This document shows, one piece after another, positions 35,714 through 59,274 of a stretch of 61,120 nt of DNA (positions within the stretch are counted from its first letter, which is position 1; every line of letters begins with the position of its first letter). Both the position numbers and the translations under genes were made by a program. This stretch comes from Patescibacteria group bacterium. GTDB taxonomy: Bacteria; Patescibacteriota; Minisyncoccia; Ryanbacterales; GWA2-47-10b. The notes beneath the pieces are model-generated. The model searched no databases, was not told the DNA's origin, and worked only from the letters and a program-made list of their open reading frames with translations. The DNA lies in the NCBI GenBank assembly GCA_038064855.1, contig JBBTSE010000005.1, positions 1-61,120 of the forward strand, read 5' to 3'.

Positions 35714-36352
35714 CTATAGTATTGGTTCGCGGTACACATCGCCCGCCTTAGGAATATCGGTCGTCGACGATTTTTTTGTGTCTTTTGCTATTTCGCGAAA
35801 TTCGGGGGCTTTCGGTGCGATGCTCGGCTGGTTTTGTGTCATGGCGGTGGGACTCGACTGCTCTTCGTGCAGTTTTTGAGGAAAAATCATTGGGGCTACC
35901 GACGGTTGACCTTTTGATGATTTTTGCTCACTTCCCTGCATAGGCATAGCAAATGATGAGGGGCGAAATGCTGGCGACGGGTCCGCATCAAATGCTCGCG
36001 GAGTAGCTACCACTTTCTCTGCCGGCTTTGGCTCTTTTACCGCTGAGAAAATATGATCTTGGATAGGCAGAAATACTGCCTGATTGAGGTCGGTGACAAT
36101 CTCTCCTGCCTTTTGCGCTGATACTCCACATGTTTGCATTACATATTCAGGAAATTCTTTTGCGGGGATAAGCCCAAGCATTACATATCCGACCTCTTCG
36201 GCAAGATTGCCCATGCGGTCGAGCAAGAGGCCATGTTTTTTGCCGACTGCCTGTATTTTATCTGCTGTCGCTTCTTCAAAAATCGCATCTTTAACAGGAT
36301 CAGGGAGCCGATCGTACGCGTCGATTATTTGTTGTTGGGTAAATGTTTTCAT
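35714..36352 (-). CDS. Hypothetical protein (helical N-domain, Pro/Ser-rich tail)
   Basis: Intact ORF within the cluster. No family recognised. Confidence 0.45.
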   Translation of the reverse strand: MKTFTQQQIIDAYDRLPDPVKDAIFEEATADKIQAVGKKHGLLLDRMGNLAEEVGYVMLGLIPAKEFPEYVMQTCGVSAQKAGEIVTDLNQAVFLPIQDHIFSAVKEPKPAEKVVATPRAFDADPSPAFRPSSFAMPMQGSEQKSSKGQPSVAPMIFPQKLHEEQSSPTAMTQNQPSIAPKAPEFREIAKDTKKSSTTDIPKAGDVYREPIL

Positions 36353-36355
36353 AGA

Positions 36356-38833
36356 TTAGGGTGCCGGCGGTGGTGCGGCAGGGGGCGTCGCAGGTGGCGC
36401 ACCGGGGGCGGCAAACTGGCCGGTGTTTACATCGCGGCGAGAGAGAGGGGTGCCATCAACAATAAGACTGCGTGCAGGAGCTGATTTCATAAGTTTCAGA
36501 AGATTCGTGTTGATGAGGTAGTCGCGCGACACATCTGATTCTTTATATTTACCCGCTCTATCTGCTGTACTAAGTTTCTCAAACTCTGCATCGGGGAGGA
36601 CGCCATCAAGAAAATCTTCAAGATCTTTGCCGGTCTTGCCGACTTTGCGCTCAAGAGATTCTTTGATGGCATTTGCATTTTCACCCGTTTGTGCCACGCG
36701 GCGCATGTCATTTGCAGAAAAGCTCTTAAACATAACATCTTCAAAGTAAGGGTTATTGATCGAATCTGGTTTGAGTTTGGTGAGTTGCTTCTCATCCATA
36801 TTCGAAACGCGGTCGTTGACCAATTTTTGGTAGGCCTGCTGTTCAGAGGTGGGCGCTTTTGGATCATAGGTGCCTGGTGGTGCTTCAACACCATGAAGAA
36901 TCTTGATGGATCCCGCAACACTATTAATCTCTTTCGTAAGATTTTCAAATGCTTCGCGCGCATCCGGATCGATGATATCATGCGAGTTCTGGAGTTTTTC
37001 GGTATCAACTTTGTTTTTGATAGCTGCGCGCTGGAAATATTGGTCGCCTTCGATAGTTCCCTTGCGTAGTTTGGCCAGGTCTTTTTCTCCGAGACTCTTC
37101 ACATATTTATCTACATTATCTTGGTACATCTTTGTTTCCGCATCGCTCGTTTTTCCTTTGACGGGCTTTTCGTCACCATGTAAGATCTTCATCGCTTGCT
37201 CGACACTACCTGATGCGATGGCCACTTGGCGTTCGTAGTCTTTATTCGGATCAGTTGAATGGATTGATTTTGCAAACGCTACCTGCTGGCTCGTGTTCAT
37301 CTCCTGGACCGTGCGCGCTTTTTGCTTTTCATCCATTGTTTCAAATGCCTTTGCTTTTCCTCGAGCATTCAGCGTGGTCATGAGTGAGGCGGCGGCTCGA
37401 GGTTCGAGTCCCTTCACGCGTGTTGCTTGTTGATCCGCCATCTTTGCGCGTTCAGCATCACGCTTTTGAATCGCCGCCCCCGGTACGCGGAGTGCCTGTC
37501 TGGCCAATGGTACGCGCGCGAGCGCTCGTCCCACGGCGGTGTTGGAGACTTTTTCCGACGCCCAGCCAGCAGGTCGGAGCGCACTTTCGTAGAGTGCGCG
37601 GTTGCCCAATGATTTACCCTTGCCGGCAAGATATTTGCTTGCCGCTGTTGCCGCTCCCGCTCCGCTGATACTCATCTTCTGTGCTACCAAAAGACCGCCC
37701 ACCACAAACATAGTAAGGATGGCAAAATTGAGTATAAGTTGGATCTTTTGAGTAAACAGACTTGCGCCAGTCGCCGCCCACTGACTATTGGAAAACATTG
37801 CACCCGCTAAACCATCTTTGTCAGCATTCACCATCTTTGCGATGACGCCGTACTTGATGGCGGTGATACTGATATAGAGCGTGAACATAAATGCAGGGTA
37901 GAAAAACGCGTGCTTAAAGAGAGTTTCAAACCATTCACCTGATATACTTGAGGTTTTCGGCAATACCCAAAAGAGAAACGCAAACGGAGCTAAAATAAGT
38001 ACGAACCACAAGACGACGATGCGGGTGATGAGCATGGCCATGGCGGCCACAAGCACAATAGAGACGACAACAATAAGTATAATGGCAAAAATCTCAGCAA
38101 TAATGATATCAATGAGGGTGTCGGCAAGTTCGGAGGCAGCTGGTTTTGGTGCATCAGGGGCTCGCATAAGAAGTTTTGACGGATGAAACCCACTGATAAG
38201 TGTCGTCGATATATCAAGTGTTTTGTGTGTTGTGTCTATAGTTCCATCAGGATTTTTTGCAAAATTACCGATTTCCCTATCTTCGCTGGTCGACATGTTG
38301 ATATAAAAGGTATTTCCAAGGGCATTAGAAAAGTCGATGATCAAACCGGCGATAGGCAAGCTAAAGTTGACCAGCAATGCTGAGACGATAAGCTTCCAAA
38401 GAAGCGTTTTCATGCCGTACGAATCGTAACGGATGATGGTGGCGATAGATATGATGAGCAGGAAGAAAATATAGAAAATATTTGCTACATCGCGTGCAAT
38501 TATCCAACCCACATTTACCATCGGTTGGTTGTGGAAGGCGCCGTTTTGTATCACCAGCACCATATTGAAAAGTTTTGCGATTGCCCACAGGAGCCATGAC
38601 GCAAATTGTACAAATAGATAAGCGATTCGCGCGAAGAAATATGACGCGCAAAGCCCAAGATTAGCAGGCATGAAGAAGTTCAATCCAGCAGAGGCGCAGG
38701 CATCGCTCAGGTTGTCGAGTCCGCTATGTTCTGCCTTTGGTTCCGCGGCCAGTGCTGGTAACGCCCCCAATAAAAGAACAAGTGCGACAAGCGCGAGAGA
38801 TGTGATCAGTATGATGCGAAGTTTTTTGTTCAT
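36356..38833 (-). CDS. VirB6/TrbL-like polytopic membrane protein with long repeat-containing C-terminal domain and Pro/Ala tail
   Basis: Signal/TM start, at least 7 hydrophobic segments over ~400 aa, then ~400 aa soluble with two related segments starting KILHG..., ending APGAPPATPPAAPPPAP. Confidence 0.55.
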   Translation of the reverse strand: MNKKLRIILITSLALVALVLLLGALPALAAEPKAEHSGLDNLSDACASAGLNFFMPANLGLCASYFFARIAYLFVQFASWLLWAIAKLFNMVLVIQNGAFHNQPMVNVGWIIARDVANIFYIFFLLIISIATIIRYDSYGMKTLLWKLIVSALLVNFSLPIAGLIIDFSNALGNTFYINMSTSEDREIGNFAKNPDGTIDTTHKTLDISTTLISGFHPSKLLMRAPDAPKPAASELADTLIDIIIAEIFAIILIVVVSIVLVAAMAMLITRIVVLWFVLILAPFAFLFWVLPKTSSISGEWFETLFKHAFFYPAFMFTLYISITAIKYGVIAKMVNADKDGLAGAMFSNSQWAATGASLFTQKIQLILNFAILTMFVVGGLLVAQKMSISGAGAATAASKYLAGKGKSLGNRALYESALRPAGWASEKVSNTAVGRALARVPLARQALRVPGAAIQKRDAERAKMADQQATRVKGLEPRAAASLMTTLNARGKAKAFETMDEKQKARTVQEMNTSQQVAFAKSIHSTDPNKDYERQVAIASGSVEQAMKILHGDEKPVKGKTSDAETKMYQDNVDKYVKSLGEKDLAKLRKGTIEGDQYFQRAAIKNKVDTEKLQNSHDIIDPDAREAFENLTKEINSVAGSIKILHGVEAPPGTYDPKAPTSEQQAYQKLVNDRVSNMDEKQLTKLKPDSINNPYFEDVMFKSFSANDMRRVAQTGENANAIKESLERKVGKTGKDLEDFLDGVLPDAEFEKLSTADRAGKYKESDVSRDYLINTNLLKLMKSAPARSLIVDGTPLSRRDVNTGQFAAPGAPPATPPAAPPPAP

Positions 38834-38842
38834 AACATTCTA

Positions 38843-39790
38843 TCAGTTTCGTACTTCATCAAATCCTCTTTTAATCGCACCCTGAATAGCCGCACTCACC
38901 GTCTCGGCTATAAGTTCGGATATTTCATCGGCGGCCATCAACCCTTCCATGTTTGAAGAGATAGAGGGCCTGACCGCATCAGCGACCGCTTGACCGACGG
39001 TTCTGCTTTTGTATTTTTTGCATACTCGTTCAATTTCAGTCGATCCTTCCTCGCTCGAATAAGGTGCCTCAGTTTCTTCCCATTCAATACATTCGCGTAC
39101 GGGTTTATATCCTTGGCCGGTTTCGGTTTCAAGTCGGACATCGCCCTTGCGTATATCCGCACGGTACATCTGCTCTTCAAAGAGTTTGAGTTGAAATCCT
39201 ATAGCATTGTTGTTGCTATTGCGCATTTGGAACCAGTTATCAAACCCGCCCGATTCAAAATTGTCGGTAAATCGTTCGAGGTTGCCTACTGCATCGTTGA
39301 TCGTACATCCAGCACCAAATCCCCGTTGCCTACGGTAGTTACCCAGCTCAAAGATAAGGTCAGGACCAAAATCTTGGCAGAAAAAATCATCATCTTGTCC
39401 TAATGTGTTAGCAAGCTCTGCGAGTAAGGCGCCCGACGCCTCATCTCCTACCTCGGAGAAGTACTGACCGGGGTTTTGTACAAAGAGTGGCCCGCCACCC
39501 TCAAATCCGCCTGCCATCCACGAGAGTGTGTCTGCGATAAGTGCCTCTTTGATTTGGGAAACCGCCAATTTCACCGCCGTATCAATGAAATATTCTTTAT
39601 ACCAGAGTGCCTCCGTAGAGTCTGATGTGAGGGAATTATACGCCTCTTGTATGACGGTGCTTATCTCATTGAGAATATCGAAGACAACATCCATAAAGTC
39701 TTCAACGATGGTCGCATTGGCTGGCTGAGCGTTACCAAGAAAAAGACTAAAGCAAAGCGCTATGCCGATGATGTACTTTGCGTATCTCAT
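38843..39790 (-). CDS. Hypothetical secreted protein
   Basis: Signal peptide MRYAKYIIGIALCFSLFLGNAQPANA. No family recognised. Confidence 0.5.
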   Translation of the reverse strand: MRYAKYIIGIALCFSLFLGNAQPANATIVEDFMDVVFDILNEISTVIQEAYNSLTSDSTEALWYKEYFIDTAVKLAVSQIKEALIADTLSWMAGGFEGGGPLFVQNPGQYFSEVGDEASGALLAELANTLGQDDDFFCQDFGPDLIFELGNYRRQRGFGAGCTINDAVGNLERFTDNFESGGFDNWFQMRNSNNNAIGFQLKLFEEQMYRADIRKGDVRLETETGQGYKPVRECIEWEETEAPYSSEEGSTEIERVCKKYKSRTVGQAVADAVRPSISSNMEGLMAADEISELIAETVSAAIQGAIKRGFDEVRN

Positions 39791-40782
39791 GAGGTCGGCT
39801 TGGTGAAATAATATTTTGCGTAGTGAGAGTCTTGATCGGTGAAGACAATGTTTTGCTTCTGTGTTGTTTCCCGTGCTGTGTTGATAATCTTTACGCCGTC
39901 TTGTACGAGCAATACATAGTGTTGCATGCCGATTGTTCCCAAAATCGGATCGGTATCCAAGAGAGATATATGGTGAATGGCAAGCGCTGTGTTTGCCATG
40001 AAATTCATGAACGAAAGATGAAACTCACTCAGTTCACCGGGCACGGGTACTCCCTTGAGCTCTGATGCAAATCCGGCATACTTTGAGCGAAAGCCTGCGA
40101 TACGCGCCAATGTCTCCTCACGCTCCTCATCGCTCATGGCGGTACCATCTCTATTTTTTTTCTCGAGGAGCCCACGGAAGATTTCTACTCCCCCGATTTT
40201 TTCACCTACTTTTTGTTTGAGCGGAAAATATTTTTCTCCTATGCGACCTACAGTGTTAAAGTATGTTTTTGGATCCGAGGACGCGCTGATGCGTAGATCA
40301 TTTTTGGTATAAGGGTTCCGTTGATCGAGGATTTTTTCAGTCGCCGCGATAGTGTTGTTGGTAACCTCATTTTTTATCGATTCGTTAAAATCATCTTTGG
40401 TAAGGGTGCCGGTTTCTTTGACACGCGCCTCCATGTATTGAGAAAGGCTTCGTTCGAGCTCCATGGTTGGTAGGGTCAGCGTACCGTCTTTATCAAGAAT
40501 CTCATTTTGAAATGCCAAGGTACTCGCACGGTCAAGGCCATCGAGGATGCCGTTGCCGTCAGAGTCGGGGTTTTGGGGGTCGGTTCCCGCGATAAGCTCC
40601 TCCCAATCTTTGAGACCATCACCATCAGTATCGCGCTGGCTCGTCGGGTCGATTACTTGTGCCCGTATCGAGCTCTTGGCCGCTAGTTTTTCTCCCCTAC
40701 CAGAGGCGAAAAAGACCATACCACCGGCCGCAAGGATGGCTAGAAACAAAAAGACTAGTTTTTTTGAGGGAAGATAATTCAA
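39787..40782 (-). CDS. Membrane-anchored protein with thrombospondin type-3-like Ca-binding repeats
   Basis: N-terminal TM. DTDGDGLKDWEELIAGTDPQNPDSDGNGILDG matches the DxDxDG repeat pattern. First gene of the cluster. Confidence 0.55.
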   Translation of the reverse strand: MNYLPSKKLVFLFLAILAAGGMVFFASGRGEKLAAKSSIRAQVIDPTSQRDTDGDGLKDWEELIAGTDPQNPDSDGNGILDGLDRASTLAFQNEILDKDGTLTLPTMELERSLSQYMEARVKETGTLTKDDFNESIKNEVTNNTIAATEKILDQRNPYTKNDLRISASSDPKTYFNTVGRIGEKYFPLKQKVGEKIGGVEIFRGLLEKKNRDGTAMSDEEREETLARIAGFRSKYAGFASELKGVPVPGELSEFHLSFMNFMANTALAIHHISLLDTDPILGTIGMQHYVLLVQDGVKIINTARETTQKQNIVFTDQDSHYAKYYFTKPTS

Positions 40783-51052: not shown

Positions 51053-51940
51053 GTGCGACCTATGACGATTGAAAAAATAATGCGTGAGTTTTTGGAAGAT
51101 TTGGAGCTTGAGCGTGGCCGCTCACCAAAGACGATAGAAAACTATAACCACTATCTCAAGCGTTTTTTTACGCACGCCAAAGTCTTAAACCCCGCGCACA
51201 TCTCTGACGACTTGGTCCGCTCGTACCGTCTCGCGCTCAACCGTACGGGACTTTCACCTCGCACGCGCAATTATCACCTTATTGCGTTGCGGATGTTTTT
51301 AAAATATTTAGCCAAGCGCGATATTAAATCACTCGCGCCCGAGCGCGTGGAGCTCGCCAAACTTGGAGACCGAGACATTGATATACCGCACGAAGGAGAC
51401 TTGGAGCGATTGCTGGGTGCGCCAAAAACTGATGCCCTGCAAGGAGTTCGCGACCGCGCGATCTTAGAACTACTGTTCTCAACTGGACTGCGCGTATCAG
51501 AACTCACGGCGCTCAATCGTGACTCGCTCGATCTGGGTCGTGATGAATTTTCCGTGCGTGGCAAGGGTTCGAAGATACGCATCGTATTTTTATCCAAAGA
51601 CGCTAAAGACTCAATCCGCGCGTATCTCTCCAAGCGCGGTGATATGTCAGAAGCACTTTTTGTAGGTACGCAAAAGAAAAATCCTGCGCGTCTCACGCCG
51701 CGTCAGATCGAACGACTTGTAAAACGCTACGCGATTAGCGCAGGCATCCCCGGCAAAGTGACACCACATACTTTGCGTCACTTGTTTGCTACCGATCTTT
51801 TGCTCAACGGCGCTGATATCAGATCAGTACAAGCGATGCTCGGACACTCGTCGATCACCACTACACAAATCTATACTCACATGACTGACCGGCAACTCCG
51901 CGAAGTACACAAAGCATTTCACGGAAAGCGCAGAAAGTAA
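51053..51940 (+). CDS. xerC: Tyrosine recombinase XerC/XerD family
   Basis: N-terminal SAM-like domain (LELERGRSPKTIENYNHYLKRF). Catalytic R (GLRVSEL), K, HxxR (HTLRHLFAT), R/H (LGHSSITTTQIYTH with Tyr). The start may be ATG 51062. Confidence 0.85.
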   Translation: MRPMTIEKIMREFLEDLELERGRSPKTIENYNHYLKRFFTHAKVLNPAHISDDLVRSYRLALNRTGLSPRTRNYHLIALRMFLKYLAKRDIKSLAPERVELAKLGDRDIDIPHEGDLERLLGAPKTDALQGVRDRAILELLFSTGLRVSELTALNRDSLDLGRDEFSVRGKGSKIRIVFLSKDAKDSIRAYLSKRGDMSEALFVGTQKKNPARLTPRQIERLVKRYAISAGIPGKVTPHTLRHLFATDLLLNGADIRSVQAMLGHSSITTTQIYTHMTDRQLREVHKAFHGKRRK

Positions 51941-51962
51941 TTTTTTAAAAATAAAAATGAAA

Positions 51963-51990
51963 ACGGAGGATCCTTGCCAGGATCCTCCGT
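51963..51990. terminator. Bidirectional terminator hairpin ACGGAGGATCC-ttgcca-GGATCCTCCGT
   Basis: 11-bp perfect stem. An A/T-rich run on the left gives a U-tail for the minus-strand small-ORF operon; the tail for xerC is weaker (GCCGTTTCGG). Confidence 0.65.
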
Positions 51991-52102
51991 GCCGTTTCGG
52001 GTCAACTCCCAATGCCGTGGGTTATTGCCCTACCTGTTTCGTCATCACGACGCATAGTGGGTGAGTGTTTGCCGTCACTCCCCTAGCGCCAGTATCCATC
52101 TG

Positions 52103-52303
52103 TCAGCAGCTGATGCACCGTGCCGGCGGCGTCATTGCCGTGATCTGCGGACGCGGATGCTCGCGCGTCCTCCCCTCGCGGTTGGCGCGAACGATCGCCT
52201 CGTCTTCGCGCACCATGCGGTCGGTGTTGAGCGGATAGCGAGTATCGCTTCCTGATGCCGCCACATGCGACCACTGACCTACTGACGGATTCCACCTGCT
52301 CAT
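52103..52303 (-). CDS. Hypothetical 66-aa protein (island small ORF 2)
   Basis: SD GAGGGGGA about 4 nt upstream of the ATG. GC-rich, ends ..PPARCISC, followed by terminator 51963-51990. Other overlapping frames lack an SD. Confidence 0.45.
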   Translation of the reverse strand: MSRWNPSVGQWSHVAASGSDTRYPLNTDRMVREDEAIVRANREGRTREHPRPQITAMTPPARCISC

Positions 52304-52349
52304 ACTTCCCCCTCGCTAGAGCTCCCCCATGGAGCTCATCTGTGAATTG

Positions 52350-52517
52350 CTACCCTCTCCGATCCCCGTCTTCGTGGGGGTTCTGCTGCGAGCCAGATTC
52401 GTTCGGCGCGGCCTGAGCGGTACGATCCCTCATCGCCTCCGGGAGTCTCCTTGGTCCCCGGTTTGGTGTGCGTAGAGTGGTACGCGCGCGCGTCACGATT
52501 CTGTCCTTTCGCTTCAT
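52350..52517 (-). CDS. Hypothetical 55-aa basic protein (island small ORF 1)
   Basis: Hand-translated as MKRKDRIVTRARTTLRTPNRGPRRLPEAMRDRTAQAAPNESGSQQNPHEDGDRRG. SD AAGGAGGG 3 nt upstream of the ATG. Below the ORF-track cutoff. Confidence 0.45.
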   Translation of the reverse strand: MKRKDRIVTRARTTLRTPNRGPRRLPEAMRDRTAQAAPNESGSQQNPHEDGDRRG

Positions 52518-52571
52518 GGTCCCTCCTTGTGGGGTTTGTCAGCCAAAAGGCCGACTGGTTTTCTGTTCATT

Positions 52572-52599
52572 ATTCTATACCTGACCCAAAATATTGCAA
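52572..52599 (-). promoter_or_regulatory. Candidate promoter TTGCAA-16-TAGAAT for the small-ORF operon
   Basis: Minus strand has TTGCAA (52599-52594) and TAGAAT (52577-52572). A 5'-UTR hairpin GTCGGCC-tttt-GGCTGAC follows. Confidence 0.4.
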
Positions 52600-52673
52600 G
52601 AGTGTCGTATTTATGGTCTTCTATAACATCAAAAAATCGTTGAAGAATAAGGGTTTTTGGTATGTTAAGGCAC

Positions 52674-52702
52674 TTGACTTTTATCATATTATTTGGTATA
52701 AT
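52674..52702 (+). promoter_or_regulatory. Strong promoter TTGACT-17-TGgTATAAT (extended -10) for the island two-gene operon
   Basis: TTGACT at 52674-52679, TG at 52694-52695, TATAAT at 52697-52702. About 115-nt leader before ATG 52825, with GGAG 7 nt upstream. Confidence 0.65.
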
Positions 52703-52824
52703 AGCTTCAGAAATACAGATAAGGACAGAACCTTGATTTGTGAACTCCAAGTCCAAAAGGGCTTGAAAAATAAGGCAAAAACAACAACGAAGCGCTGAAA
52801 TACTGCGCAAAATGGAGTCCAGAG

Positions 52825-54321
52825 ATGGTACAAAGAGGTAGAGGGAACAAAGGTGCCGGCAACGCCAATAACGCGGGAAACCGTCAACCCCGTCTTCAGA
52901 TCTCGAAGGTCGACTATACGACCCCAGAGAAGCTGAAGGATGGAACATTCACTATTCTTCTTCTTGCCGACATCGTCGGCGGGAACGGATCTGAGCAGAT
53001 CCGGTTCTATCTCGATCGGTCCCCTCAAGGGACCAGTGCCAGCGTGGAGCAGTACGGACGTACTGGTTACGCCCAAACTCGCACTGATTCCGGACTCCGG
53101 ATCGGCACGCGCTATGAAGTCGCGGCCGAGATCATCGCCGGCGGCAAGGTCGTCGGCAACCGCGTTGCGCGGTTCATCGTCTTGCCAAAGGAGACGAAGA
53201 AGTCTCTAGCGGCTAAGAAGGCGCAGAAAGTGCGCGACGAGATCGAGCTCAAGCGACTTGAGCGCGAGCTCAGAGAGCTTGCGCGAGAGCCATCGGTAAC
53301 CGCGCGAGAGATCAAGGATCTGCAGGAGCAGGTCGCCGTGATCAAGGCTCGTCGCGAGCGCGACGAACTCTTTCGCGGGCCAACACTCCTCGAGCGGGCG
53401 GCCAAAAATGTCACTGCACAGATCATGCTCACGAAGCTCCGCAAGGAGCTCTCCAATCTCGGTAAGATACCGGCAAAGGAGATCGTGAGGCCCGTGATCG
53501 AGTGTGTGGGATCAAATGGTCACTACATTGTGAGTGGATGCGTGGTCTACAAGGACTCGTCGTTTGCAACGAGGTACCCCGTGCTCATCTCGGCCGCTCC
53601 CTATCGTGGTATCCCCACGGTCGAGCCAGTGCTGACTGATGAGCATGGCTACTTCACGCACACTGTCCAGTTCGGTGAACGGTCCGCTGACATCCATGTG
53701 ATCGTCGGTGGGACGGGAGGCTACGAGGAGTTTTACAATGACTACGCCGGCCCCAAGCCGCGCGGTCTGCGTAACAACAATGTACGCCTCGCCACCATCT
53801 GGCTCATCGCGGCACTCCTTCTGGTATTCAACTTGTGGTTGCTACCCGACGCGCCACTGCCGAGCAAGGTTGAAGGTTTGCCCGAAGGTTTGCGGGAGGG
53901 CTTGCTCTCCATGCATCCTGAATGGGCACCAACCGCTTGGCAGTCATTCCTCTGGTTCTTCAACCGAGGTATGTGGGGTTCCTTCTGGATCCTTGTGGTT
54001 GCCGGTCTCGTTTACCTGCCCGTCGCGTTTAGTGACGAGGCAGCAGGTCTGGGGCGAGCAGTCGTGAACATCGCCTCAAAGAAGCAAAGTGGCGGTGGAG
54101 GCAAATCTCCACCCGCGAGTGGAAGCCCGCAGGCGGGCACAACTCCGACATCAGATGCGGATCCGTTAGCCTTCCTCAAGGGGAAGGGGCCATTTATCAC
54201 GGCTATCGGAGCTGTAATCTTCACTATTGTGACTGAATGGCTCGAGCGCAGGCGTGATCGAAAGATCCACTCGCTCGCAAACAAGATTGTCGGCGGCAAG
54301 CCGACAGGAGGATCTGCATGA
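52825..54321 (+). CDS. Hypothetical 498-aa protein: basic N-tail, beta-rich domain, coiled coil, second beta-rich domain, C-terminal TM cluster
   Basis: Long ORF with SD in a GC-rich island. Charged heptad-like stretch KKAQKVRDEIELKRLERELRELAREPSVTAREIKDLQEQVAVIKARRERDE. TM segments LATIWLIAALLLVFNLWLL, WGSFWILVVAGLVYLPVAF, FITAIGAVIFTIV. No family or catalytic motif recognised. Confidence 0.65.
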   Translation: MVQRGRGNKGAGNANNAGNRQPRLQISKVDYTTPEKLKDGTFTILLLADIVGGNGSEQIRFYLDRSPQGTSASVEQYGRTGYAQTRTDSGLRIGTRYEVAAEIIAGGKVVGNRVARFIVLPKETKKSLAAKKAQKVRDEIELKRLERELRELAREPSVTAREIKDLQEQVAVIKARRERDELFRGPTLLERAAKNVTAQIMLTKLRKELSNLGKIPAKEIVRPVIECVGSNGHYIVSGCVVYKDSSFATRYPVLISAAPYRGIPTVEPVLTDEHGYFTHTVQFGERSADIHVIVGGTGGYEEFYNDYAGPKPRGLRNNNVRLATIWLIAALLLVFNLWLLPDAPLPSKVEGLPEGLREGLLSMHPEWAPTAWQSFLWFFNRGMWGSFWILVVAGLVYLPVAFSDEAAGLGRAVVNIASKKQSGGGGKSPPASGSPQAGTTPTSDADPLAFLKGKGPFITAIGAVIFTIVTEWLERRRDRKIHSLANKIVGGKPTGGSA

Positions 54322-55682
54322 ACTCGTACGCAATCTGGGCGCTCGTGGCGTTTGCCACAGCGCTTGTGCTCAAGGTAGCGGGTGTCGCCGGTTTCTGGGC
54401 GACGCTCATCATCATTGGCATGTTCGCGGCAGGGCGTATTGCCTCGCAGGCGAACGAACGGATCGGCAAGATAGTGATGTGGATCGCCGCGGTGCTCGCG
54501 GTGGTCACCATCCTCTTGCCGTTCGCTGTGCGCGTCACCGTTGGGGGTTTTCCGTCCTACATCGGTGGATCATTCGAGCGACGAGGGGCGTCAGTTGCTC
54601 TTCGAACTGCCGAGCGGATCGACGATGGAACCTACGATATCGAGACTCGGTACTTACAGGGATGCAAGGACGAGATCGATCGCGAGACCACGCGTCTAAC
54701 TGGCGAGATGAATATCCTTACGGCCGCGCGCATCGCTGGCAAGATGGATGTCGGTCAGTTCGATCGAGAGTTCAATGCTCTTGGCGGGCAGATCGACGCC
54801 TTGCGCGTCAGGCGCGAGGAGTGCAGCGTGAAGTTTCGCGGTCGCGATCTCTCGGAGATTGTCGCAAAATCTGCTATCGTCACCAACGCTACGGCGAAGG
54901 TGAAGAGTGGCTGGAACGCGTTTCCCGATTTCGAGAGAAGGAGCGGATTCATTCTGCTCATCGGCATCATGTATATCTTGATCGGCTTGATCGTACGGAG
55001 GTTCCACGCGCAGTTTGGAGGGGCAATCTTCGCTCCCGGCGTGCTGCTGGTGCTTCTGGCAGTCATTGATTCTTTCGCCGGCGCCAAGTCTTGGCCGGCG
55101 CAAGTGATCGATGTTTTGACCGGCGACTACTCGGGGCAGCCGCTCCTCGTCACCGCGCTCAAGGCGACTGCGGTTGGCATCATCGCTCTTGCGGCGCTCG
55201 GCTTCAAACCAAGCGTGCGGCTCGGTACGGTGGTCACGGCCGTATTCATTTGGTTGCTGGCTGCACTCGCGCAACCCGGCGCTTCGTTCGGCAGTATCGC
55301 TGACCAGCTTAGTGGGAAGTTCGGCGGGGTTAACATCACCGCGCCGATCAACAAGATCTTCGGCGGGACCCAGACGGTTCCGTGCCGTGACCACGACGCT
55401 CTCTTCCGTGATGCGGATATCGGTCAGCTGGTTCGCTGTTTTCAGCGGATGGAGACTGGCGATAAGACAATGCTTCAATTGCACGGTGGCGACTGGGGGA
55501 TCACTCCATCCAACGCGCCGATGCACATAACACTGTGGTATGGCGAGGAAGTAGTCTACCGCGGTGTTTACCGGCCGGGCACCCACCCGACCGCGAATCG
55601 CATTCAGATCACTGCCAACGGGCCCGCTGATCTTACTATCAGCATGAGGAAGTTGGACAGCGCAGCGCAGACAAGAAGGTGA
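54318..55682 (+). CDS. Hypothetical 454-aa polytopic membrane protein with central coiled coil and C-terminal soluble domain
   Basis: ATGA overlap with the upstream gene. Three N-terminal TMs, a ~130-aa charged/coiled segment, about five further TMs, and a ~110-aa Cys/His-containing beta-rich C-terminus. No family recognised. Confidence 0.65.
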   Translation: MNSYAIWALVAFATALVLKVAGVAGFWATLIIIGMFAAGRIASQANERIGKIVMWIAAVLAVVTILLPFAVRVTVGGFPSYIGGSFERRGASVALRTAERIDDGTYDIETRYLQGCKDEIDRETTRLTGEMNILTAARIAGKMDVGQFDREFNALGGQIDALRVRREECSVKFRGRDLSEIVAKSAIVTNATAKVKSGWNAFPDFERRSGFILLIGIMYILIGLIVRRFHAQFGGAIFAPGVLLVLLAVIDSFAGAKSWPAQVIDVLTGDYSGQPLLVTALKATAVGIIALAALGFKPSVRLGTVVTAVFIWLLAALAQPGASFGSIADQLSGKFGGVNITAPINKIFGGTQTVPCRDHDALFRDADIGQLVRCFQRMETGDKTMLQLHGGDWGITPSNAPMHITLWYGEEVVYRGVYRPGTHPTANRIQITANGPADLTISMRKLDSAAQTRR

Positions 55683-55740
55683 GGCCTTAAGAGTTCACAT
55701 ATATCGTCGCCCCCAAAACATTGGGGGCAAACAGTAAACC

Positions 55741-55782
55741 GAGGCGTCGCATGAATCATCGTGCGGCGCCTCTTTCCTTTTT
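55741..55782 (+). terminator. Rho-independent terminator of the island operon
   Basis: GAGGCG..GCA-loop-TGC..CGCCTC followed by TTTCCTTTTT. An additional hairpin GCCCCCA-aaacat-TGGGGGC lies at 55706-55729. Confidence 0.65.
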
Positions 55783-55831
55783 ATGCGACCCTTTTCCCGT
55801 GCTACTATATATGGTATAAACAATGACGCGA

Positions 55832-55903
55832 GTCCTCGTGGTGAAATGGATATCACGACTGGCTTCGAACCAGTTATTGGGGGTTCGAGTCCCTCCGAGG
55901 GCA
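55832..55903 (+). tRNA. tRNA-Arg (anticodon TCG), no encoded CCA
   Basis: GTCCTCG-TG-GTGA-AATGGATA-TCAC-G-ACTGG-CTTCGAA-CCAGT-TATT-GGGGG-TTCGAGT-CCCTC-CGAGGGC-A. Confidence 0.85.
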
Positions 55904-55923
55904 CTAATATTATTTTTTAATAT

Positions 55924-55996
55924 CCACTCGTAGCTCAGTTGGTAGAGCAGTCGCCTCTTAAGCGAACGGTCGTAGGTTCGATCCCTACCGAGTGGA
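55924..55996 (+). tRNA. tRNA-Lys (anticodon CTT), no encoded CCA
   Basis: CCACTCG-TA-GCTC-AGTTGGTA-GAGC-A-GTCGC-CTCTTAA-GCGAA-CGGTC-GTAGG-TTCGATC-CCTAC-CGAGTGG-A. The C1-G72 first pair is unusual. Confidence 0.8.
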
Positions 55997-56006
55997 CAGT
56001 AACGCA

Positions 56007-57464
56007 ATGGCACAAATTCCAAAAGAAATAATCTCTATCATTGAAACGCTCGAGGGCGCTGGTTTCGAGGCATTTGTGGTGGGCGGATCAGTGCGTGACC
56101 TGCTCATCGAGCGCAAACCAAAAGATTGGGATATCACCACGAGCGCGGTACCCGAAGATATTTTGCGTTTGTTTCCTGATAGCAAATACGAAAACGATTT
56201 TGGTACCGTATGCGTGTTTCCGCCAAATCCGTCCGAGGCATCGCTTGCGATGGTCGAGGTAACCCCCTATCGCACCGAGGCCCAGTATTCAGACAAACGA
56301 CATCCTGACAAAGTCGAGTTTGGTAAATCGCTCGAAGAAGATTTGGCGCGCCGCGATTTTACTATCAACTCGCTCGCGCTCAATGTAAAGACTGATAATG
56401 TCATCGATCTATTTTCTGGCAAGCGCGATTTTCGCGAGGGTCTTATCCGTGCGGTAGGCAATGCCGAGGAACGCTTTTCCGAAGATGCGTTGCGTATCAT
56501 GCGCGCGTTGCGCCTATCAGCTGAGCTCGGATTTCATATTGAAGACGAGACACTTGTGGCTATCAAAAAAACCGTAAAACTTTTGCGTTTTATCGCCAAA
56601 GAGCGCATTCGCGATGAGTTTTCAAAGGTTATTCTCTCCCCCGCTCCGCACGAAACGCTCGAGCTTGTGCGTGCACTCGGTATTTTAAAATTGGTAGCAC
56701 CCGAGATTGAGGAGGGATACGGCGTGGGGCAAAACAAACACCATATCTATACAGTGTTGGAGCACAACTTGTACGCGCTCAAGTACGCGGCATCAAAAGA
56801 ATGGTCACTCGAAGTGCGTATGGCCGCTCTCTTGCATGATGTAGGCAAACCGCGTTCAAAGCGTGGCGATGGGCCTGACTCAAGTTTTTACGGTCACGAA
56901 ATAATTGGCGCCAAGATGACGACTACTATTCTCAATCGTCTCAAATACTCAAAACAATTTGTAGACAAAGTATCAAAGCTCGTGCGCTATCACCTGTTTT
57001 ATTACAATGTCGACGAAGTTGGTGAGGCGTCAGTCCGCCGGCTCATCCGCAAGGTGGGTCCGGAAGACATGGAAGACTTGATAAAAGTGCGCTTCTGCGA
57101 CAGGATTGGTTCGGGAGTGCCCAAGGCCGAGCCGTACAAATTGCGTCATTTTCGTTTTGTTATCGAGAAGCTTTCACGCGATCCTATCTCAGTCAAAATG
57201 CTCAAAGTAAACGGCGGTGATATCATGAAGATCGCAAAGCTTGAACCAAGCCCCAAGGTTGGCCAACTACTCAACATTTTGCTCGAAGAAGTGCTCGATG
57301 ACCCAAAGCGCAATACCAAAGATATTTTGCAGGCACGCATAAAAGAGCTTGCGGGTATGACTGAACGGCAACTCAAAGCGCTTGCAGATGGTGCTAAGAA
57401 AAAATCATCAGCGCTTGAAGAAGAAGAAGTAACGAAAATAAAAGGAAAACACAGAGTTAAATAA
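56007..57464 (+). CDS. cca: CCA-adding tRNA nucleotidyltransferase with HD domain
   Basis: PolyA_pol head (FVVGGSVRDLL..PKDWDITT, RRDFTINSLA), HD domain (ALLHDVGKP). Start set at MAQIPKEI (56007), after tRNA-Lys. Confidence 0.85.
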   Translation: MAQIPKEIISIIETLEGAGFEAFVVGGSVRDLLIERKPKDWDITTSAVPEDILRLFPDSKYENDFGTVCVFPPNPSEASLAMVEVTPYRTEAQYSDKRHPDKVEFGKSLEEDLARRDFTINSLALNVKTDNVIDLFSGKRDFREGLIRAVGNAEERFSEDALRIMRALRLSAELGFHIEDETLVAIKKTVKLLRFIAKERIRDEFSKVILSPAPHETLELVRALGILKLVAPEIEEGYGVGQNKHHIYTVLEHNLYALKYAASKEWSLEVRMAALLHDVGKPRSKRGDGPDSSFYGHEIIGAKMTTTILNRLKYSKQFVDKVSKLVRYHLFYYNVDEVGEASVRRLIRKVGPEDMEDLIKVRFCDRIGSGVPKAEPYKLRHFRFVIEKLSRDPISVKMLKVNGGDIMKIAKLEPSPKVGQLLNILLEEVLDDPKRNTKDILQARIKELAGMTERQLKALADGAKKKSSALEEEEVTKIKGKHRVK

Positions 57465-57558: not shown

Positions 57559-58449
57559 ATGGAAGCCGCGCGACAATTTGAAGATTTTACGAGCGGCCGT
57601 GAAAGGTTCAATGAACCGCCAGCACTCACGCCCGATCAAGTGCGCGATGTTGTCGATTATACGGCTGGTATCGCGCTCTCCCCGCCCGCTGATGTGGGTG
57701 TAAAATATTTTGAAGACAAGGCACGCGAATATCTTGAGAATAAACATTTTGATAAAGAGCGAGGTGTGCAGGCAGAGTCAGTACTCATGTTGCCGCGTAT
57801 GGCTATTTGGCAAGAGGCGCAAAAGCATCGCGAACAAGGTGGCAACGGTATGACGCCTGATAGAAAGTTGGCAGTGGCGCAGGCGCGCGGGGCAAAGTTT
57901 ATCTATCAAAACCGTGATAACCTGCCTCCGCTTGATAGCGTGTGGCGAGGCATCGCCACTTCCTATGGGGTGCTCGAGGGTCGCGGATATGATGCTGATA
58001 TCGAGCGAACTACGCGCAACGGCATAGGTAGACTCGTTACCTCGATTGCCGCTTTTGAATCGATAGGGTATGAGACCTATAGTCCCAAGGCGCGCACCGA
58101 TGAAGATGTGCAGGCAAAGATTGATCTCGTATCAATAGAAAAAGGAGGTGGGACTATTTTTTGTATTCAGATAAAACCAAGTAAAACCAGCGAAGTGGTT
58201 GCTACCACTTTTGATAGAGGTGAAACATTATCTCCCGAGAAAGAGCAAAAGAGCCAAGAGACGGCAGTAAATCTTTTTATCATGAACGCGCGCAATCTTC
58301 AGACGCGCTACCCTGCTCTACGCGTGGTGCCGATGTATCTGGAAATGCCCGCAGGTGAGCATAGACCTGAAGATATTGATCCGGCGTCAGGTCTTTTGCG
58401 AGACGCAAAAGGTAACTATCCCTTGACAACAAGTACCCTGTTTTGCTAG
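57559..58449 (+). CDS. Hypothetical protein with possible C-terminal PD-(D/E)xK-like nuclease core
   Basis: 296-aa ORF starting 18 nt after tRNA-Pro. AAFESIGYE ... AKIDLVSIEKGGGTIFCIQIKPSK fits an E...D...(Q/E)xK strand pattern. Weak, motif-level only. Confidence 0.4.
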   Translation: MEAARQFEDFTSGRERFNEPPALTPDQVRDVVDYTAGIALSPPADVGVKYFEDKAREYLENKHFDKERGVQAESVLMLPRMAIWQEAQKHREQGGNGMTPDRKLAVAQARGAKFIYQNRDNLPPLDSVWRGIATSYGVLEGRGYDADIERTTRNGIGRLVTSIAAFESIGYETYSPKARTDEDVQAKIDLVSIEKGGGTIFCIQIKPSKTSEVVATTFDRGETLSPEKEQKSQETAVNLFIMNARNLQTRYPALRVVPMYLEMPAGEHRPEDIDPASGLLRDAKGNYPLTTSTLFC

Positions 58450-58458: not shown

Positions 58459-59274
58459 ATGGAAAAGTATACCTATAAACAGTTTCAGGCAGAGTTCTCC
58501 AATGACGACATTTGCCTAGACTATATCTTTGCCCTCAAACACCCTGAGGCAAAACAATACTATCGGGTAAAAGGGCGTAAGTGCTATGCCAACCCACAAG
58601 GAAAGCAATTGCACCCTCTTGTTGGCACCATATTCGAAAAGTCCTCTACTTCGCTTACTAATTGGCTTTATGCCATTTTCCTCTTTTCCGCTTCCCGTAA
58701 TGGGGTATCGGCAAAAGAACTACAGCGTCAGCTTGGCGTAACCTACAAGTGTGCATGGCGTATGGCTAATAGTATACGAAAGCTCATGGAAAGCGGCGAT
58801 GATATGCTCTCGGGTACCGTAGAGGTAGACGAGACATATTTTGGTGGGCGTACCAAAGGTCATGCCGAAAAGTTCTCAAAGAAAACCGCCCTTATGGGTA
58901 TGGTAGAACGCAAAGGGCGTATTCGAGTAAAGAAGATATCAGATCGTGGTACTCGTAGTCTCTTAGATAACATCAAAGCTACGGTATCAAAGGACGCTAT
59001 TATTATGAGCGATGAGTTTCGTGTGTATGCTAAATTGCCGAAACTAGGTTATGAAAGTCATCGTATCAAACACGGCAAAAGACATTGGGTACGAGGTGAT
59101 ATCCATACCAATACGATTGAGGGATTTTGGGGTCAGCTCAAGCGTTCTATTCGTGGGACTTATCACTCGGTTTCGCCTCGTCATTTGCAGAGCTACGCGA
59201 ACGAGTTTGCTTTTCGCTACTCTCACCGCCACGCTTCTTTGAATCTTTTCCACCTCCTAATGGAGAGGGTGTAA
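58459..59274 (+). mobile_element. IS1595-family (ISXO2-like) DDE transposase gene; element ends not identified
   Basis: N-terminal Zn-ribbon-like region, then VEVDETYFGG, IMSDEFRVY and TNTIEGFWGQLKRSIRGTYH blocks characteristic of IS1595 transposases. Confidence 0.8.

Follow-up and report, generated by a model that had tools for sequence, protein, structure and literature searches.

Between xerC and a tRNA-Arg gene, the genome of a tiny, uncultivated, Ryanbacteria-like Patescibacteria bacterium (Parcubacteria) holds a G+C-rich island encoding two large membrane proteins (A and B) and two small minus-strand proteins (s66 and s55). The locus raises the question of whether this island is a recent foreign insertion or a resident part of the chromosome, and what its proteins may do. 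The explanation we consider best, with about even confidence, is a hypervariable slot that is resident throughout the clade, belongs to the "replacement flexible genomic island" type, and would encode an envelope complex that is abundant and has exposed domains. The pattern of evolution behind it (position, scaffold conservation, mosaicism and extreme divergence, a restricted distribution, and the second context) is well supported.

Composition, genes, and regulatory elements of the island

In the window, i.e., the whole analyzed stretch of 61,120 nucleotides, the region at 52.0–55.7 kb has a G+C content of 56–65%, compared to 47–50% in the backbone. The 1-kb windows gave 0.53–0.59 at 52–56 kb versus 0.45–0.50 across most of the window, and 200-nt windows between 52000 and 55700 gave 0.56–0.65, with an AT-rich trough (0.34–0.38) at 52500–52800. 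Third codon positions hold the G+C excess. The 59 non-overlapping ORFs of the window have a median GC3 of 0.47 (sd 0.08), whereas A reaches 0.66 and B 0.71, the top values among all window ORFs of at least 200 aa. These profiles and a terminator scan bear out the composition jump between two terminators seen in the first-pass annotation. The AT-rich control region with divergent promoters, the ATGA-joined genes A and B, and the 55-aa and 66-aa ORFs with strong SDs were likewise recovered as it had described (Table 1), and its view of a self-contained, envelope-embedded system with its own regulation and atypical composition is supported. The window also carries a T4SS-like cluster at 29–41 kb (VirB4/TraC-like ATPase, PrgI, TrbL/VirB6, and T4SS_pilin).

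Table 1. Coordinates of genes and predicted regulatory elements of the island
Feature	Position	Strand	Basis and remarks
Intrinsic terminator hairpin, read as bidirectional	51963-51990	both	Terminator scan; 12-bp stem, A-run before, T-run after on minus strand
s66, small hydrophilic protein, 66 aa	52103-52303	-	ORF; strong SD GGGGGAAGT before ATG
s55, small arginine-rich protein, 55 aa	52350-52517	-	ORF; strong SD GGAGGGA
Small-ORF operon promoter, sigma-70-like	52599-52572	-	Scan, 9/12; TTGCAA-16-TAGAAT
A-B operon promoter, near-consensus extended -10	52674-52702	+	Scan, 11/12 plus TG; TTGACT-17-TGgTATAAT
A-B 5' leader, ~120 nt	52703-52824	+	GGAG at 52814-52817
A, 498 aa	52825-54321	+	ORF; A-N and A-C modules fused
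B, polytopic membrane protein, 454 aa	54318-55682	+	ORF
A-B operon intrinsic terminator	55741-55782 (hairpin 55741-55772 and T-run)	+	Scan; right edge of variable slot

The xerC-proximal hairpin, which bounds the variable slot on the left, was scored on the minus strand, but because of the A-run upstream on the plus strand, we read it as ending both the xerC and the small-ORF transcripts. Its stem sequences differ in four genomes and are all still self-complementary, i.e., the structure is kept and the sequence is not. A dif-type recombinase site was considered for this hairpin and rejected, since the compensatory stem changes fit a terminator. Homology to L004 on the left side ends at 51953. 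The A-B promoter is invariant in four genomes and is the single match to the extended −10 consensus in the window; an extended −10 promoter also precedes the module or other cargo in L004, L005, L007, L009, L084, L085/86, and L088. Both hexamers of the small-ORF promoter are kept in the window genome, L084, and L004, and the −35 hexamer in L005 too. The A-B leader is partly conserved among the window genome, L084, and L004 and has a fold z-score of −2.6; a consensus structure was without support and Rfam without a match.

Gene A overlaps B in ATGA, with AGGAGGA located 6 nt 5' of the ATG of B. A is a fusion of two modules, each of which is its own gene in relatives. A-N (approximately residues 1–315) comprises a basic Gly/Asn/Arg tail, a beta-sandwich, a coiled coil of approximately 90 aa, and a second beta-sandwich; the coiled coil is an insertion missing from all other A-N homologues. 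Family members display sub-threshold matches to Big_1 (33.8 bits vs. a cutoff of 34.9), Big_3_5, and CarboxypepD_reg. The basic residues before the first transmembrane (TM) segment and the fusion geometry suggest a cytoplasmic location for A-N. A-C (approximately residues 316–498) contains two TMs and a C-terminal amphipathic helix. The three TMs assigned to A in the first-pass annotation are more likely two TMs and this amphipathic helix, because the supposed third one (residues ~447–472) aligns to the amphipathic helix at the C-terminus of homologues that stand alone. The remaining architectures broadly hold, as judged from hydropathy and low-confidence AF2 secondary structure, the AF2 models of A and B both being poor (pLDDT 42–45). 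A-N matches positions 4710–5495 of L005 (34%, E 4e-14), and A-C matches L005 5496–6065 and L001 181–780; relatives of A are 32–44% identical in partial alignments only.

The N-module of B consists of three TMs and a helical domain of approximately 130 aa with the conserved Cys pair C116/C169, its C-module of four TMs and a beta-rich C-terminal domain of approximately 110 aa with the conserved Cys pair C356/C374. Hydropathy, the positive-inside rule, and the Cys pairs point to an N-in, C-out topology with seven TMs, in which the helical and the beta domain would be ectodomains. B and its relatives are 30–45% identical (dN 0.5–0.8; pS 0.68–0.72, saturated), with TM pattern and Cys pairs kept. 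As divergence is about equal in TM segments and ectodomains, diversifying selection visibly focused on exposed parts was not seen.

The small proteins combine conserved N-termini with variable C-termini. In s66, the conserved part is M-x-W-N-P-x-x-G-x-W-S; 60–71-aa ORFs with SD, ATG, and this motif are found in L084 and L005 and, in weaker form, in L004, and ERZ1305449 has a predicted gene of 66 aa in this position. In s55, about 30 N-terminal residues are conserved (MRR.xG..ARAR..L...RRLPE), and 53–59-aa counterparts start at the kept SD and ATG in L084 (76% amino acid identity; dS 0.29, dN 0.15), L004, and L005.

Searches of Pfam, PHROGs, NCBIfam, and PADLOC gave nothing significant for the island proteins. 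Library and PDB sequence searches left A, B, and the small proteins without assignment, family searches with s66 and s55 were without any match, and viral contigs and phage genomes contained nothing related. Billion-scale protein searches returned approximately 10 relatives, every one from Patescibacteria; the sample of the A/B module is thin, with about eight genomes carrying it. To judge from these searches, the island system belongs to no described family, in agreement with the first reading of the locus.

The annotated reading frames of A and B are correct, because they display the GC1>GC2<GC3 periodicity, intact orthologous ORFs of the island genes are present in at least six genomes, and dN/dS is 0.2–0.5 when scaled to the island's own dS. 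Non-functional, decaying, or spurious ORFs evolving neutrally would account for the missing domain matches and for an island dN close to the backbone dS, and G+C-rich DNA does yield long spurious ORFs, several of which overlap A and B in other frames. This explanation is nevertheless very improbable, given the long intact same-frame ORFs in at least eight genomes, a three-gene order kept in two lineages, the translational coupling, strong SDs, and promoter, besides the periodicity. With intact ORFs, kept Cys pairs and TM pattern, and dN/dS below 1 relative to the dS of the island itself, the proteins are constrained.

A conserved slot with exchanged cargo

The gene order PNPase-NYN-S15-xerC-slot-tRNA-Arg-(tRNA-Lys)-cca is conserved across Parcubacteria. 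Each close relative found (L001/ERZ1305449, L004, L005, L084, and L088; backbone proteins 86–96% identical) has a filled homologous slot at the same site, sharing promoters and small-ORF starts, and all these slots are richer in G+C than their own backbone. The slot is empty (110–450 bp) in Parcubacteria that are less closely related (L016, L018, and L020–L022); in one of the more distant genomes, it is occupied by a DUF559 endonuclease-like gene. PNPase, NYN, S15, XerC, and CCA are 86–97% identical to those of the close relatives (CCA: dN 0.03–0.04, dS 0.75–0.9), and flanking proteins as a whole 90–96%, whereas the slot proteins are 30–45% identical or unalignable. Since the backbone dS already amounts to ~0.8–1.3 and the island dN is similar to it, near-neutral evolution in situ may have contributed to the divergence. 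The scaffold is kept in four genomes: both promoters, both small-ORF SD and ATG sites, and the compensated terminator hairpin.

The variation concerns the allele, via recombination, and not presence or absence. Relative to L088, the segment 52817–55075 (plus strand) is replaced; homology is unbroken up to the A start codon and resumes in B at about codon 253. The breakpoints are 52798 and 55691 relative to L004 and 52809 and 55691 relative to L084, and from 55691, 9 nt past the B stop, identity to both is at backbone level (85%). Sharp homology breakpoints hence lie at the A start, within B, and at the B stop. Among B homologues, P0003 and P0004 are 20–25% identical in the N-module and 65–81% in the C-module; P0004 and P0005 display the reverse pattern, and the P0004 N-module is 61% identical to that of L004. 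By these comparisons, B is a mosaic, whose N- and C-modules recombine and assort independently.

In two genomes of a second CPR lineage (L085/L086 and L089), a three-gene module encoding an Ig-like soluble protein, a 2-TM protein, and a polytopic protein adjoins tRNA-Leu and T4SS pilin genes. It has a G+C content of 0.50–0.55 versus 0.36–0.43 in the host genome and is also located behind a consensus extended −10 promoter. Between L085 and L089, the divergence of the module does not exceed that of its flanks, the C-terminus of B excepted. The same module at another locus of a second lineage, again G+C-richer and with an extended −10 promoter, makes horizontal movement at some time likely. The direct contact with pilin genes, together with the T4SS-like cluster of the window, could indicate an accessory of CPR type-IV-secretion-like systems, namely a surface or entry-exclusion factor or a specificity factor for mating pairs or host contact, with the alleles as specificity groups. 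Conjugative exclusion and recognition factors are typically polymorphic, which the slot would match. We regard such a role as unlikely, because the module is at least 11 kb away from the T4SS cluster and in another synteny block in the window and all close relatives, the adjacency is limited to one lineage and could be chance, and homology to known exclusion proteins was not found.

The first-pass annotation had proposed horizontal acquisition and taken the neighboring tyrosine recombinase as one sign of it. In its strict form, this would be a one-off recent integrative element, by which a foreign envelope system was inserted by a tyrosine recombinase beside tRNA genes, or an IMEX using XerC and an adjacent dif. 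The GC3 foreign to the backbone, the module's own promoter and terminator, the tRNA genes adjoining it in both lineages, and its higher G+C content than the host at two unrelated loci are in line with such an element. However, the same site is occupied in all close relatives with a common regulatory scaffold. xerC is a vertically inherited housekeeping gene and not the integrase of the island, as it is part of a synteny block that occurs with the slot empty as well, and its identity to relatives tracks that of cca. Neither att-like direct repeats flanking the island nor a dif-like conserved site at it were found, the xerC-proximal hairpin is a terminator, dnaA and dnaN are approximately 26 kb away, so the island is not at the terminus, and relatives in viral contigs or phage genomes are missing. 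A recent and private integrative element is therefore largely refuted and improbable overall; the movement of the module stands as likely, the recombinase as its sign does not.

Slightly more distant relatives carry other cargo behind the same slot or promoter, either an SPFH and a polytopic protein (L009, L010) or a helical and a polytopic protein (L007, L008). The C-terminal beta domain of this cargo is possibly related to that of B (hhalign 69%, E 4.5e-5; for the SPFH partner, phmmer 0.015–0.04 in a tiny database). A and B might accordingly resemble SPFH-NfeD operons, as a membrane scaffold or quality-control pair of a coiled-coil scaffold (A) and a polytopic partner with a beta domain (B), the variation being incidental. 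The first gene in L009, L010, and L017 is a true Band_7/SPFH gene (E 7e-11 to 8e-14), with a gene for a polytopic protein ending in a beta domain behind it, and A shares with SPFH proteins a coiled coil. We consider this unlikely, since A is without a Band_7 match and its coiled coil is a private insertion, searches as permissive as E≤1 revealed an NfeD domain neither in B nor in the SPFH partners, the gene order is reversed relative to the usual nfeD-SPFH, and housekeeping scaffolds are rarely 30% identical where core proteins are 94% identical.

The changing cargo in a hot spot between core genes, its rapid evolution, as is typical for conflict systems, the small self-contained operon of membrane proteins with a strong promoter, and the DUF559 endonuclease-like gene might also suggest an anti-phage defense or exclusion module, whose membrane complex senses or blocks infection (abortive infection or superinfection exclusion). 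This possibility, slightly less remote than the preceding ones, is still unlikely. PADLOC was negative for all components and alternative cargos, the sole match being PbeC (E 0.019) on the coiled coil, and nuclease, NTPase, protease, and other effector or sensor domains are absent. Furthermore, the alleles share a single architecture as homologous variants, in contrast to unrelated systems, and the clade carries the locus throughout, without a patchy distribution.

Proposed role of the slot

The concept of the replacement island, a locus for exposed structures that is exchanged through homologous recombination, is established (PMC4033161). The repeated swapping of cargo in this slot by recombination resembles that of exposed surface structures. 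In the preferred reading of a resident hypervariable slot, the regulatory scaffold (the bidirectional terminator, the pair of divergent promoters, and, for both small proteins, the SD and start) would stay in place, and the coding cargo would be swapped and reshuffled among lineages through homologous recombination, with exchanges at the promoter or start codon, inside B, and at the B stop. The raised GC3 may stem from a separate recombining gene pool, with donors richer in G+C or with gene conversion biased toward GC. The cargo would be a three-part module in two genes, composed of a cytoplasmic A-N with two Ig-like beta-sandwiches, the 2-TM anchor A-C, and the coupled 7-TM protein B, whose helical and small beta ectodomains are each probably disulfide-bonded. 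We infer that A-N, A-C, and B form one abundant envelope-spanning complex, highly expressed from the near-consensus promoter. With A-N predicted to be cytoplasmic, a pure "surface antigen" reading leaves this part unexplained. The exposed parts of the complex may act as recognition surfaces, i.e., as phage receptors, in the cell's host contact, or both, and allele swapping would then be selected because it alters who recognizes the cell.

Composition and regulatory region of the island

The DNA between xerC and the tRNA-Arg/cca cluster forms a G+C-rich island (0.56–0.65, compared with 0.45–0.50 around it) with an internal AT-rich trough and a terminator hairpin on either side, as the first-pass annotation had described. 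Its promoters were also found, TTGACT-17-TGgTATAAT on the plus strand and TTGCAA-16-TAGAAT on the minus strand. The plus-strand genes A and B share an ATGA overlap with AGGAGGA ahead, which suggests that both proteins are made stoichiometrically and may form a complex, and the divergent minus-strand ORFs of 55 and 66 aa (s55 and s66) are present with their strong SDs. The G+C surplus resides in third codon positions (GC3 0.66 for A and 0.71 for B; median 0.47, sd 0.08); A and B have the two highest GC3 values among window ORFs of at least 200 aa, and their coding periodicity is normal. Independent Logan assemblies contain the same contig at 99.99–100% identity, so the island junctions are not assembly chimeras. 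When cca is compared, 'Candidatus Ryanbacteria CH-Oct18-76' and 'Patescibacteria group bacterium H41-bin076_1' come closest among public MAGs (94–95% amino acid identity). The view that the island encodes no described family held for A, B, s55, and s66 in Pfam, PHROGs, NCBIfam, and PADLOC, and a PDB sequence/profile search yielded nothing usable for the four proteins. Overall, the observation of a distinct island was confirmed and its interpretation supported in part.

For the regulatory region, the stretch between the xerC stop and the beginning of the operon was aligned for the window and the relatives L084, L004, and L005. The stem sequence of the upstream terminator hairpin differs in each of the four genomes with complementarity kept. 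The −35 box and the extended −10 box of the plus promoter are invariant, and the hexamers of the minus promoter as well as the SD and ATG of both small ORFs are conserved. The s55 family (MRR.xG..ARAR..L...RRLPE, 53–59 aa) and the s66 family (M.WNPxxGxWS, 60–71 aa) each display a conserved N-terminus and a variable C-terminus. Because SD, ATG, and N-terminal peptide motifs are kept in four genomes, s55 and s66 were retained as small protein genes and appear to be real; that the Arg-rich s55 regulates the divergent operon is a guess. A structured RNA at 52000–52520 was rejected on the same grounds and for lack of an Rfam match at gathering or at E ≤ 1. The A-B promoter is the sole extended −10 consensus within 61 kb, which suggests high expression of the operon. 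The 120-nt leader was dismissed as a riboswitch; its z-score was −2.6, but neither a supported consensus structure nor an Rfam match was obtained.

A 16-nt inverted repeat (88% complementary), only partially conserved in relatives, flanks the divergent promoters. It places AAGGACAGAA near the 5′ ends of both divergent mRNAs (codons 4–7 of s55 and approximately +19 of the A-B leader), and could be an operator pair or a common RNA motif. A second small G+C-rich hairpin lies between the B stop and the main terminator, and a −10-like element immediately upstream of tRNA-Arg.

Coordinates of features in the window and, where named, in relatives
Feature	Position	Strand	Remark
Second local G+C peak	15040-15900		G+C 0.56
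179-aa ORF	15353-15892	-	signal-peptide-like N-terminus, no obvious family
Probable replication origin	24659-27330		G+C dip to 0.33
dnaN	24659-25774	-	placed by N-terminal sequence; GC3 0.25, lowest in window
dnaA	25960-27330	-	placed by N-terminal sequence
Type-IV-secretion-like cluster	29062-40782	-	several secreted proteins without family
T4SS_pilin-like protein	30308-31012	-	234 aa
VirB4/TraC-like ATPase	32781-35294	-	split
PrgI/VirB3-like protein	35297-35710	-	
TrbL/VirB6-like protein	36356-38833	-	825 aa
Upstream terminator hairpin	51963-51990		11-6-11 palindrome
G+C-rich island	52000-55700		
Inverted repeat, 16 nt	52493-52508, 52721-52736		
AT-rich trough	52500-52800		
A	52825-54321	+	498 aa
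B	54318-55682	+	454 aa
Second small hairpin	55698-55722		GCCCCCAA-AACA-TTGGGGGC
Main terminator hairpin	55741-55772		
-10-like element	~55812-55820		TGGTATAAA
Protein after tRNA-Pro	57559-58449		296 aa, no family match
IS1595/ISXO2-like transposase	58459-59274		E 4e-42
A-C homologue and second paralogue (the latter truncated), L005	5496-6065, 7297-7656		truncated
Basic protein, L017	8502-9221		239 aa
Pro/Thr-rich secreted protein, L084	12755-14518		587 aa, G+C 0.63

The slot between xerC and tRNA-Arg in related genomes

In 80 genomes fetched via cca, the block PNPase-NYN-S15-xerC, followed by tRNA-Arg(tcg) and cca, proved to be widely kept in Parcubacteria. Between xerC and cca lie from approximately 110 bp (L020 to L022; L016 and L018 are also nearly empty) to 5.5 kb. 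Every genome with a CCA at least 73% identical to that of the window holds 2.5–5.3 kb in this slot, each time with a G+C content above that of the flanks. Recognizable A/B homologues are encoded in five of them (ERZ1305449, i.e., L001, as well as L004, L005, L084, and L088; backbone proteins 86–97% identical), in which A is split into a soluble A-N (200–405 aa) and a small membrane protein A-C (~190–230 aa; ~390 aa in L004), followed by the B homologue. The slightly more distant L007 to L010 keep the slot with other cargo, in L007 and L009 also behind the extended −10 promoter. This cargo consists of a small helical protein and a polytopic membrane protein in L007 and L008, and of a Band_7/SPFH protein and a polytopic membrane protein in L009 and L010; the latter pair is also found in L017, whose CCA is 64% identical and thus outside the ≥73% group. 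The slots of still more distant genomes contain unrelated genes, including those for a HAD hydrolase, a DUF559 protein, and a transaldolase, and an IS200-like gene.

The position next to the tyrosine recombinase gene xerC had been read as a sign of horizontal acquisition. Since the synteny of xerC with the S15, NYN, and PNPase genes extends over more than 25 Parcubacteria, genomes with an empty slot included, and its identity tracks that of cca, xerC is a housekeeping gene of vertical descent and no integrase of the island. This conserved synteny, the lack of att repeats, the non-conserved hairpin, and the proximity of dnaA and dnaN all contradict a private integrative element or IMEX. Integration targeted to the tRNA gene was rejected, because no flanking repeat of at least 14 nt exists across 51700–56100 and only short repeats at chance level are scattered there. 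Likewise, the palindromic hairpin beside xerC was discarded as a dif/IMEX site: its sequence changes are compensatory, and the coincidence of dnaA and dnaN with the cumulative GC-skew minimum at 24.6–27.3 kb places the island region near the origin, not the terminus.

With flanking proteins 86–97% identical, A and B are 30–45% identical or undetectable. Between the window and L001, cca displays a dS of 0.75 and a dN of 0.029, B a pS of 0.68 (saturated) and a dN of 0.51, and A-C a dN of 0.77; the dN of B is 0.82 in comparison with L084. Two L004 rows were left out of the dN/dS table, because their pN was impossible for 94% amino acid identity. Nucleotide homology to L004 stops 13 nt past the xerC stop, is found again only in the promoter region (52509–52798, 73%), is lost across A and B, and returns 9 nt past the B stop; the pattern in L084 is the same. 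Relative to L088, homology is unbroken to the A start codon (~52817) and returns within B at ~55075, which marks the replacement of a segment of 2.26 kb. The breakpoints are thus located at 51953, 52798–52817, ~55075, and 55691.

Recombination was also detected inside B. The B homologues P0003 and P0004 are 20–25% identical in the N-module and 65–81% in the C-module, whereas the identity of P0004 and P0005 is 60% (TM part) and 48% (helical ectodomain) in the N-module and 43% (TM part) and 32% (beta ectodomain) in the C-module. The N-module of P0004 is 61% identical to that of L004, whose C-module represents a third type common to L005; homology of this C-terminal domain to the other B C-terminal types was not detectable. 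This module incongruence is direct evidence that divergent B alleles recombine.

The island proteins are under constraint, as the ORFs are intact, the TM pattern has been kept along with two Cys pairs, and dN/dS calculated with the island's own dS amounts to 0.2–0.5. Neutral decay is unlikely given the conserved ORFs and architecture. The backbone dS is high (0.75–1.3) and the island dN of the same order; hence, fast in situ evolution may contribute besides allele import. Hypermutation of the DGR type was rejected: no TR/VR-like repeat pair is present in 51.7–56.1 kb, the divergence is gene-wide and not limited to a VR of ~100 bp, and separate assemblies of one population agree at 99.99–100% across the island.

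Further variation was observed in and near such slots. The truncated second A-C paralogue of L005, downstream of the B homologue (59% identical over 112 aa), is a duplication within the slot. In the Ryanbacteria genome L017, the SPFH and membrane protein genes are followed, just before tRNA-Arg, by the gene for a basic protein, which, judged by eye, may be of the homing-endonuclease/HTH type. The gene content directly after tRNA-Pro of the window (the 296-aa protein and the transposase) is unlike that of ERZ1305449, where genes for 228-aa and 108-aa proteins are located, and this is thus another tRNA-adjacent variable spot. Together with the second G+C peak of the window and the secreted protein of L084, this raises the possibility that high G+C in patches of these genomes is, as a rule, a mark of genes for secreted or surface proteins.

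Protein families of the island and their occurrence in a second lineage

The N-terminal part of A (A-N, ~1–315) comprises two predicted beta-sandwich domains. The window copy carries a basic Gly/Asn/Arg tail and, between both domains, a coiled-coil insert of ~90 aa, which is unique to it. A-N has no signal peptide and is predicted to be cytoplasmic, because in the window A-C (~316–498) carries it at the N-terminal end and basic residues precede A-C. Two of the three C-terminal TMs originally assigned to A were found; the third segment is more likely the C-terminal amphipathic helix of A-C. Whereas Pfam Big_1 did not match the A protein of the window, the homologue in L026 reached 33.8 bits (E 3.8e-8; gathering cutoff 34.9) and also matched Big_3_5, and those of L004 and L005 gave weak Big_1 or CarboxypepD_reg matches. 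The homology of A to these three proteins is based on blastp and profile searches.

B is composed of an N-module with three TMs and a helical domain (~76–205) and a C-module with four TMs and a beta domain (~340–454). The hydropathy profile, the positive-inside rule, and both conserved Cys pairs agree on a predicted topology of seven TMs with the N-terminus inside and the C-terminus outside, in which the helical and the beta domain would face the outside of the cell. The TM predictions and the Cys pairs thus suggest two putative ectodomains. AlphaFold2 yielded a pLDDT of 42 for A (single sequence as input) and 45 for B (2-sequence alignment), both too poor for a fold search owing to too little sequence depth.

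In a word-indexed search of 5.8 billion proteins, A matched only itself and B a single relative (44% identical). The B profile recovered seven proteins when 1.84 billion cluster representatives were scanned in full by HMMER, and the profile of the N-terminal part of A matched five. All hits with a named source and all contigs examined for context are Patescibacteria-like. A phage origin found no support: PHROGs contain no relatives, none turned up in IMG/VR when it was scanned with the B alignment and P0007, and tblastn searches for A and B in 50,697 GenBank phage genomes were empty.

The two weakest matches of the B profile, P0007 and P0008, belong to a different CPR lineage with a G+C content of ~40%. 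The gene order there is tRNA-Leu, a TTGACT...TGGTATAAT promoter, the homologues of A-N (232 aa, E 3e-13), A-C (166 aa, E 7e-14), and B (~360 aa), and T4SS pilin genes. The G+C content of this module is 0.50–0.55, compared with 0.36–0.43 in the flanks. Its presence and composition at a second locus indicate that the three genes are a unit that moved between lineages at some time. To this extent the proposed horizontal acquisition stands; a private insertion in the present genome is not compatible with the conserved slot. The raised G+C in the second lineage, too, makes it a property of the module and not of one transfer event; it may stem either from a G+C-richer gene pool or from GC-biased gene conversion where recombination is frequent.

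The direct contact of the module with T4SS pilin genes in this lineage (L085 and L089), together with the T4SS-like cluster at 29–41 kb of the window, suggests an accessory of such a system as another reading, but this adjacency occurs in one lineage only.

Comparison with known systems and putative function

Replacement flexible genomic islands of aquatic prokaryotes, such as the O-chain, glycosylation, and cell-wall islands, follow an established logic in which allele replacement changes recognition (Lopez-Perez, Martin-Cuadrado & Rodriguez-Valera, 2014; PMC4033161). The slot resembles them in its identical position between core genes of related genomes, in content of an equivalent kind with little or no homology between near-identical, conserved flanks, in sharp breakpoints consistent with homologous recombination and mosaic alleles, and in its predicted envelope-protein products. 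It differs in being tiny (3.7 kb with two to three genes and two small ORFs, compared with tens of kb of glycosyltransferases), in its CPR host and undescribed protein families, in the regulatory scaffold of divergent promoters and small-ORF starts conserved inside the island, and in recombination that is also intragenic (N- and C-modules of B).

Polymorphic toxin systems and VARTIG, a hypervariable module of Ig-domain genes from Thermococcales (Makarova et al., 2021; PMC8416519), are likewise lineage-restricted modules with Ig-like domain proteins and variable downstream partners, for which hypervariability is ascribed to intergenomic recombination and conflict or recognition are hypothesized. 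In contrast to VARTIG, the putative Ig-like protein here is small (200–320 aa), devoid of a signal peptide, and predicted to be cytoplasmic, the variable exposed parts are predicted to belong to a polytopic membrane protein, the host is bacterial and not archaeal, and no sequence relationship exists. Toxin or immunity-like cassettes, as in these systems, are absent. A defence or exclusion system would be a possible reading of such a locus, yet neither PADLOC nor any domain lends support: PADLOC-DB v2 returned a single match (PbeC, E 0.019) on the coiled coil of A and none on B, s55, s66, or the other cargo types.

An SPFH-NfeD-like scaffold is suggested by the SPFH proteins in the first-gene position of the slot in L009, L010, and L017, by the possibly linked C-terminal beta domains (hhalign 69%), and by a two-gene membrane operon with a long coiled coil in A and a multi-TM partner ending in a small beta domain. 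However, Pfam Band_7, present in the positional counterparts of these three genomes, did not match A at E ≤ 0.1, and NfeD matched neither B, its family, nor the SPFH partners. In addition, the gene order is reversed, the allelic divergence at the locus is extreme, and the beta domain of B is predicted to be extracellular with a Cys pair.

Polytopic proteins of the phage-receptor type (YueB/PIP/EsaA-like topology) possess one or more N-terminal TMs, an extracytoplasmic domain that is long and helical, and a C-terminal TM bundle. The overall layout of B is similar, which makes a receptor role plausible and serves as a lead, although sequence similarity was not found and YhgE/Pip and ABC-2 (Pfam) did not match even at E ≤ 1. 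Moreover, B is much smaller, bears an extra C-terminal beta ectodomain, and has no T7SS ATPase nearby.

Taken together, the locus is a replacement-type hypervariable envelope island of three undescribed protein families in a few CPR lineages. It is unusual in that its regulatory socket is conserved and modules are shuffled within a gene. We are highly confident in this evolutionary description. Its functional reading is more tentative and somewhat less probable than its opposite: the A-B proteins would form an abundant envelope-spanning complex, the exposed parts of which may be recognized by phages and/or used in host-cell contact, and the altered recognition would be what favours the replacement of alleles. 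A further-reaching proposal appears unlikely at present. It regards the cytoplasmic double beta-sandwich protein, the 2-TM adaptor, and the 7-TM protein with two modular ectodomains as an undescribed Patescibacteria-specific three-component transmembrane system on which the specificity of the cell's contact with its episymbiotic host or with its T4SS-like apparatus would mainly depend. The locus would then act as a recombination-driven 'recognition locus' of the smallest bacteria, a fixed chromosomal socket with strong expression in which alleles would be shuffled one module at a time.

CPR bacteria represent a large share of bacterial diversity and live attached to other cells; to our knowledge, the determinants of their attachment partners and phage susceptibility are almost entirely unknown. 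The locus is a compact, delimited candidate, a strongly promoted and clade-restricted putative membrane complex with drastically different alleles in otherwise near-identical genomes, visibly rebuilt through recombination at the promoter, inside a gene, and at the terminator. Even if its function were mundane, it would still comprise three novel families of proteins and a hot spot of recombination where GC3 is raised. If the exposed domains are recognition surfaces, the locus could be used to type strains and to approach host or phage specificity in uncultivated episymbionts, and would provide an example of a conserved regulatory socket with exchangeable cargo in very small genomes.
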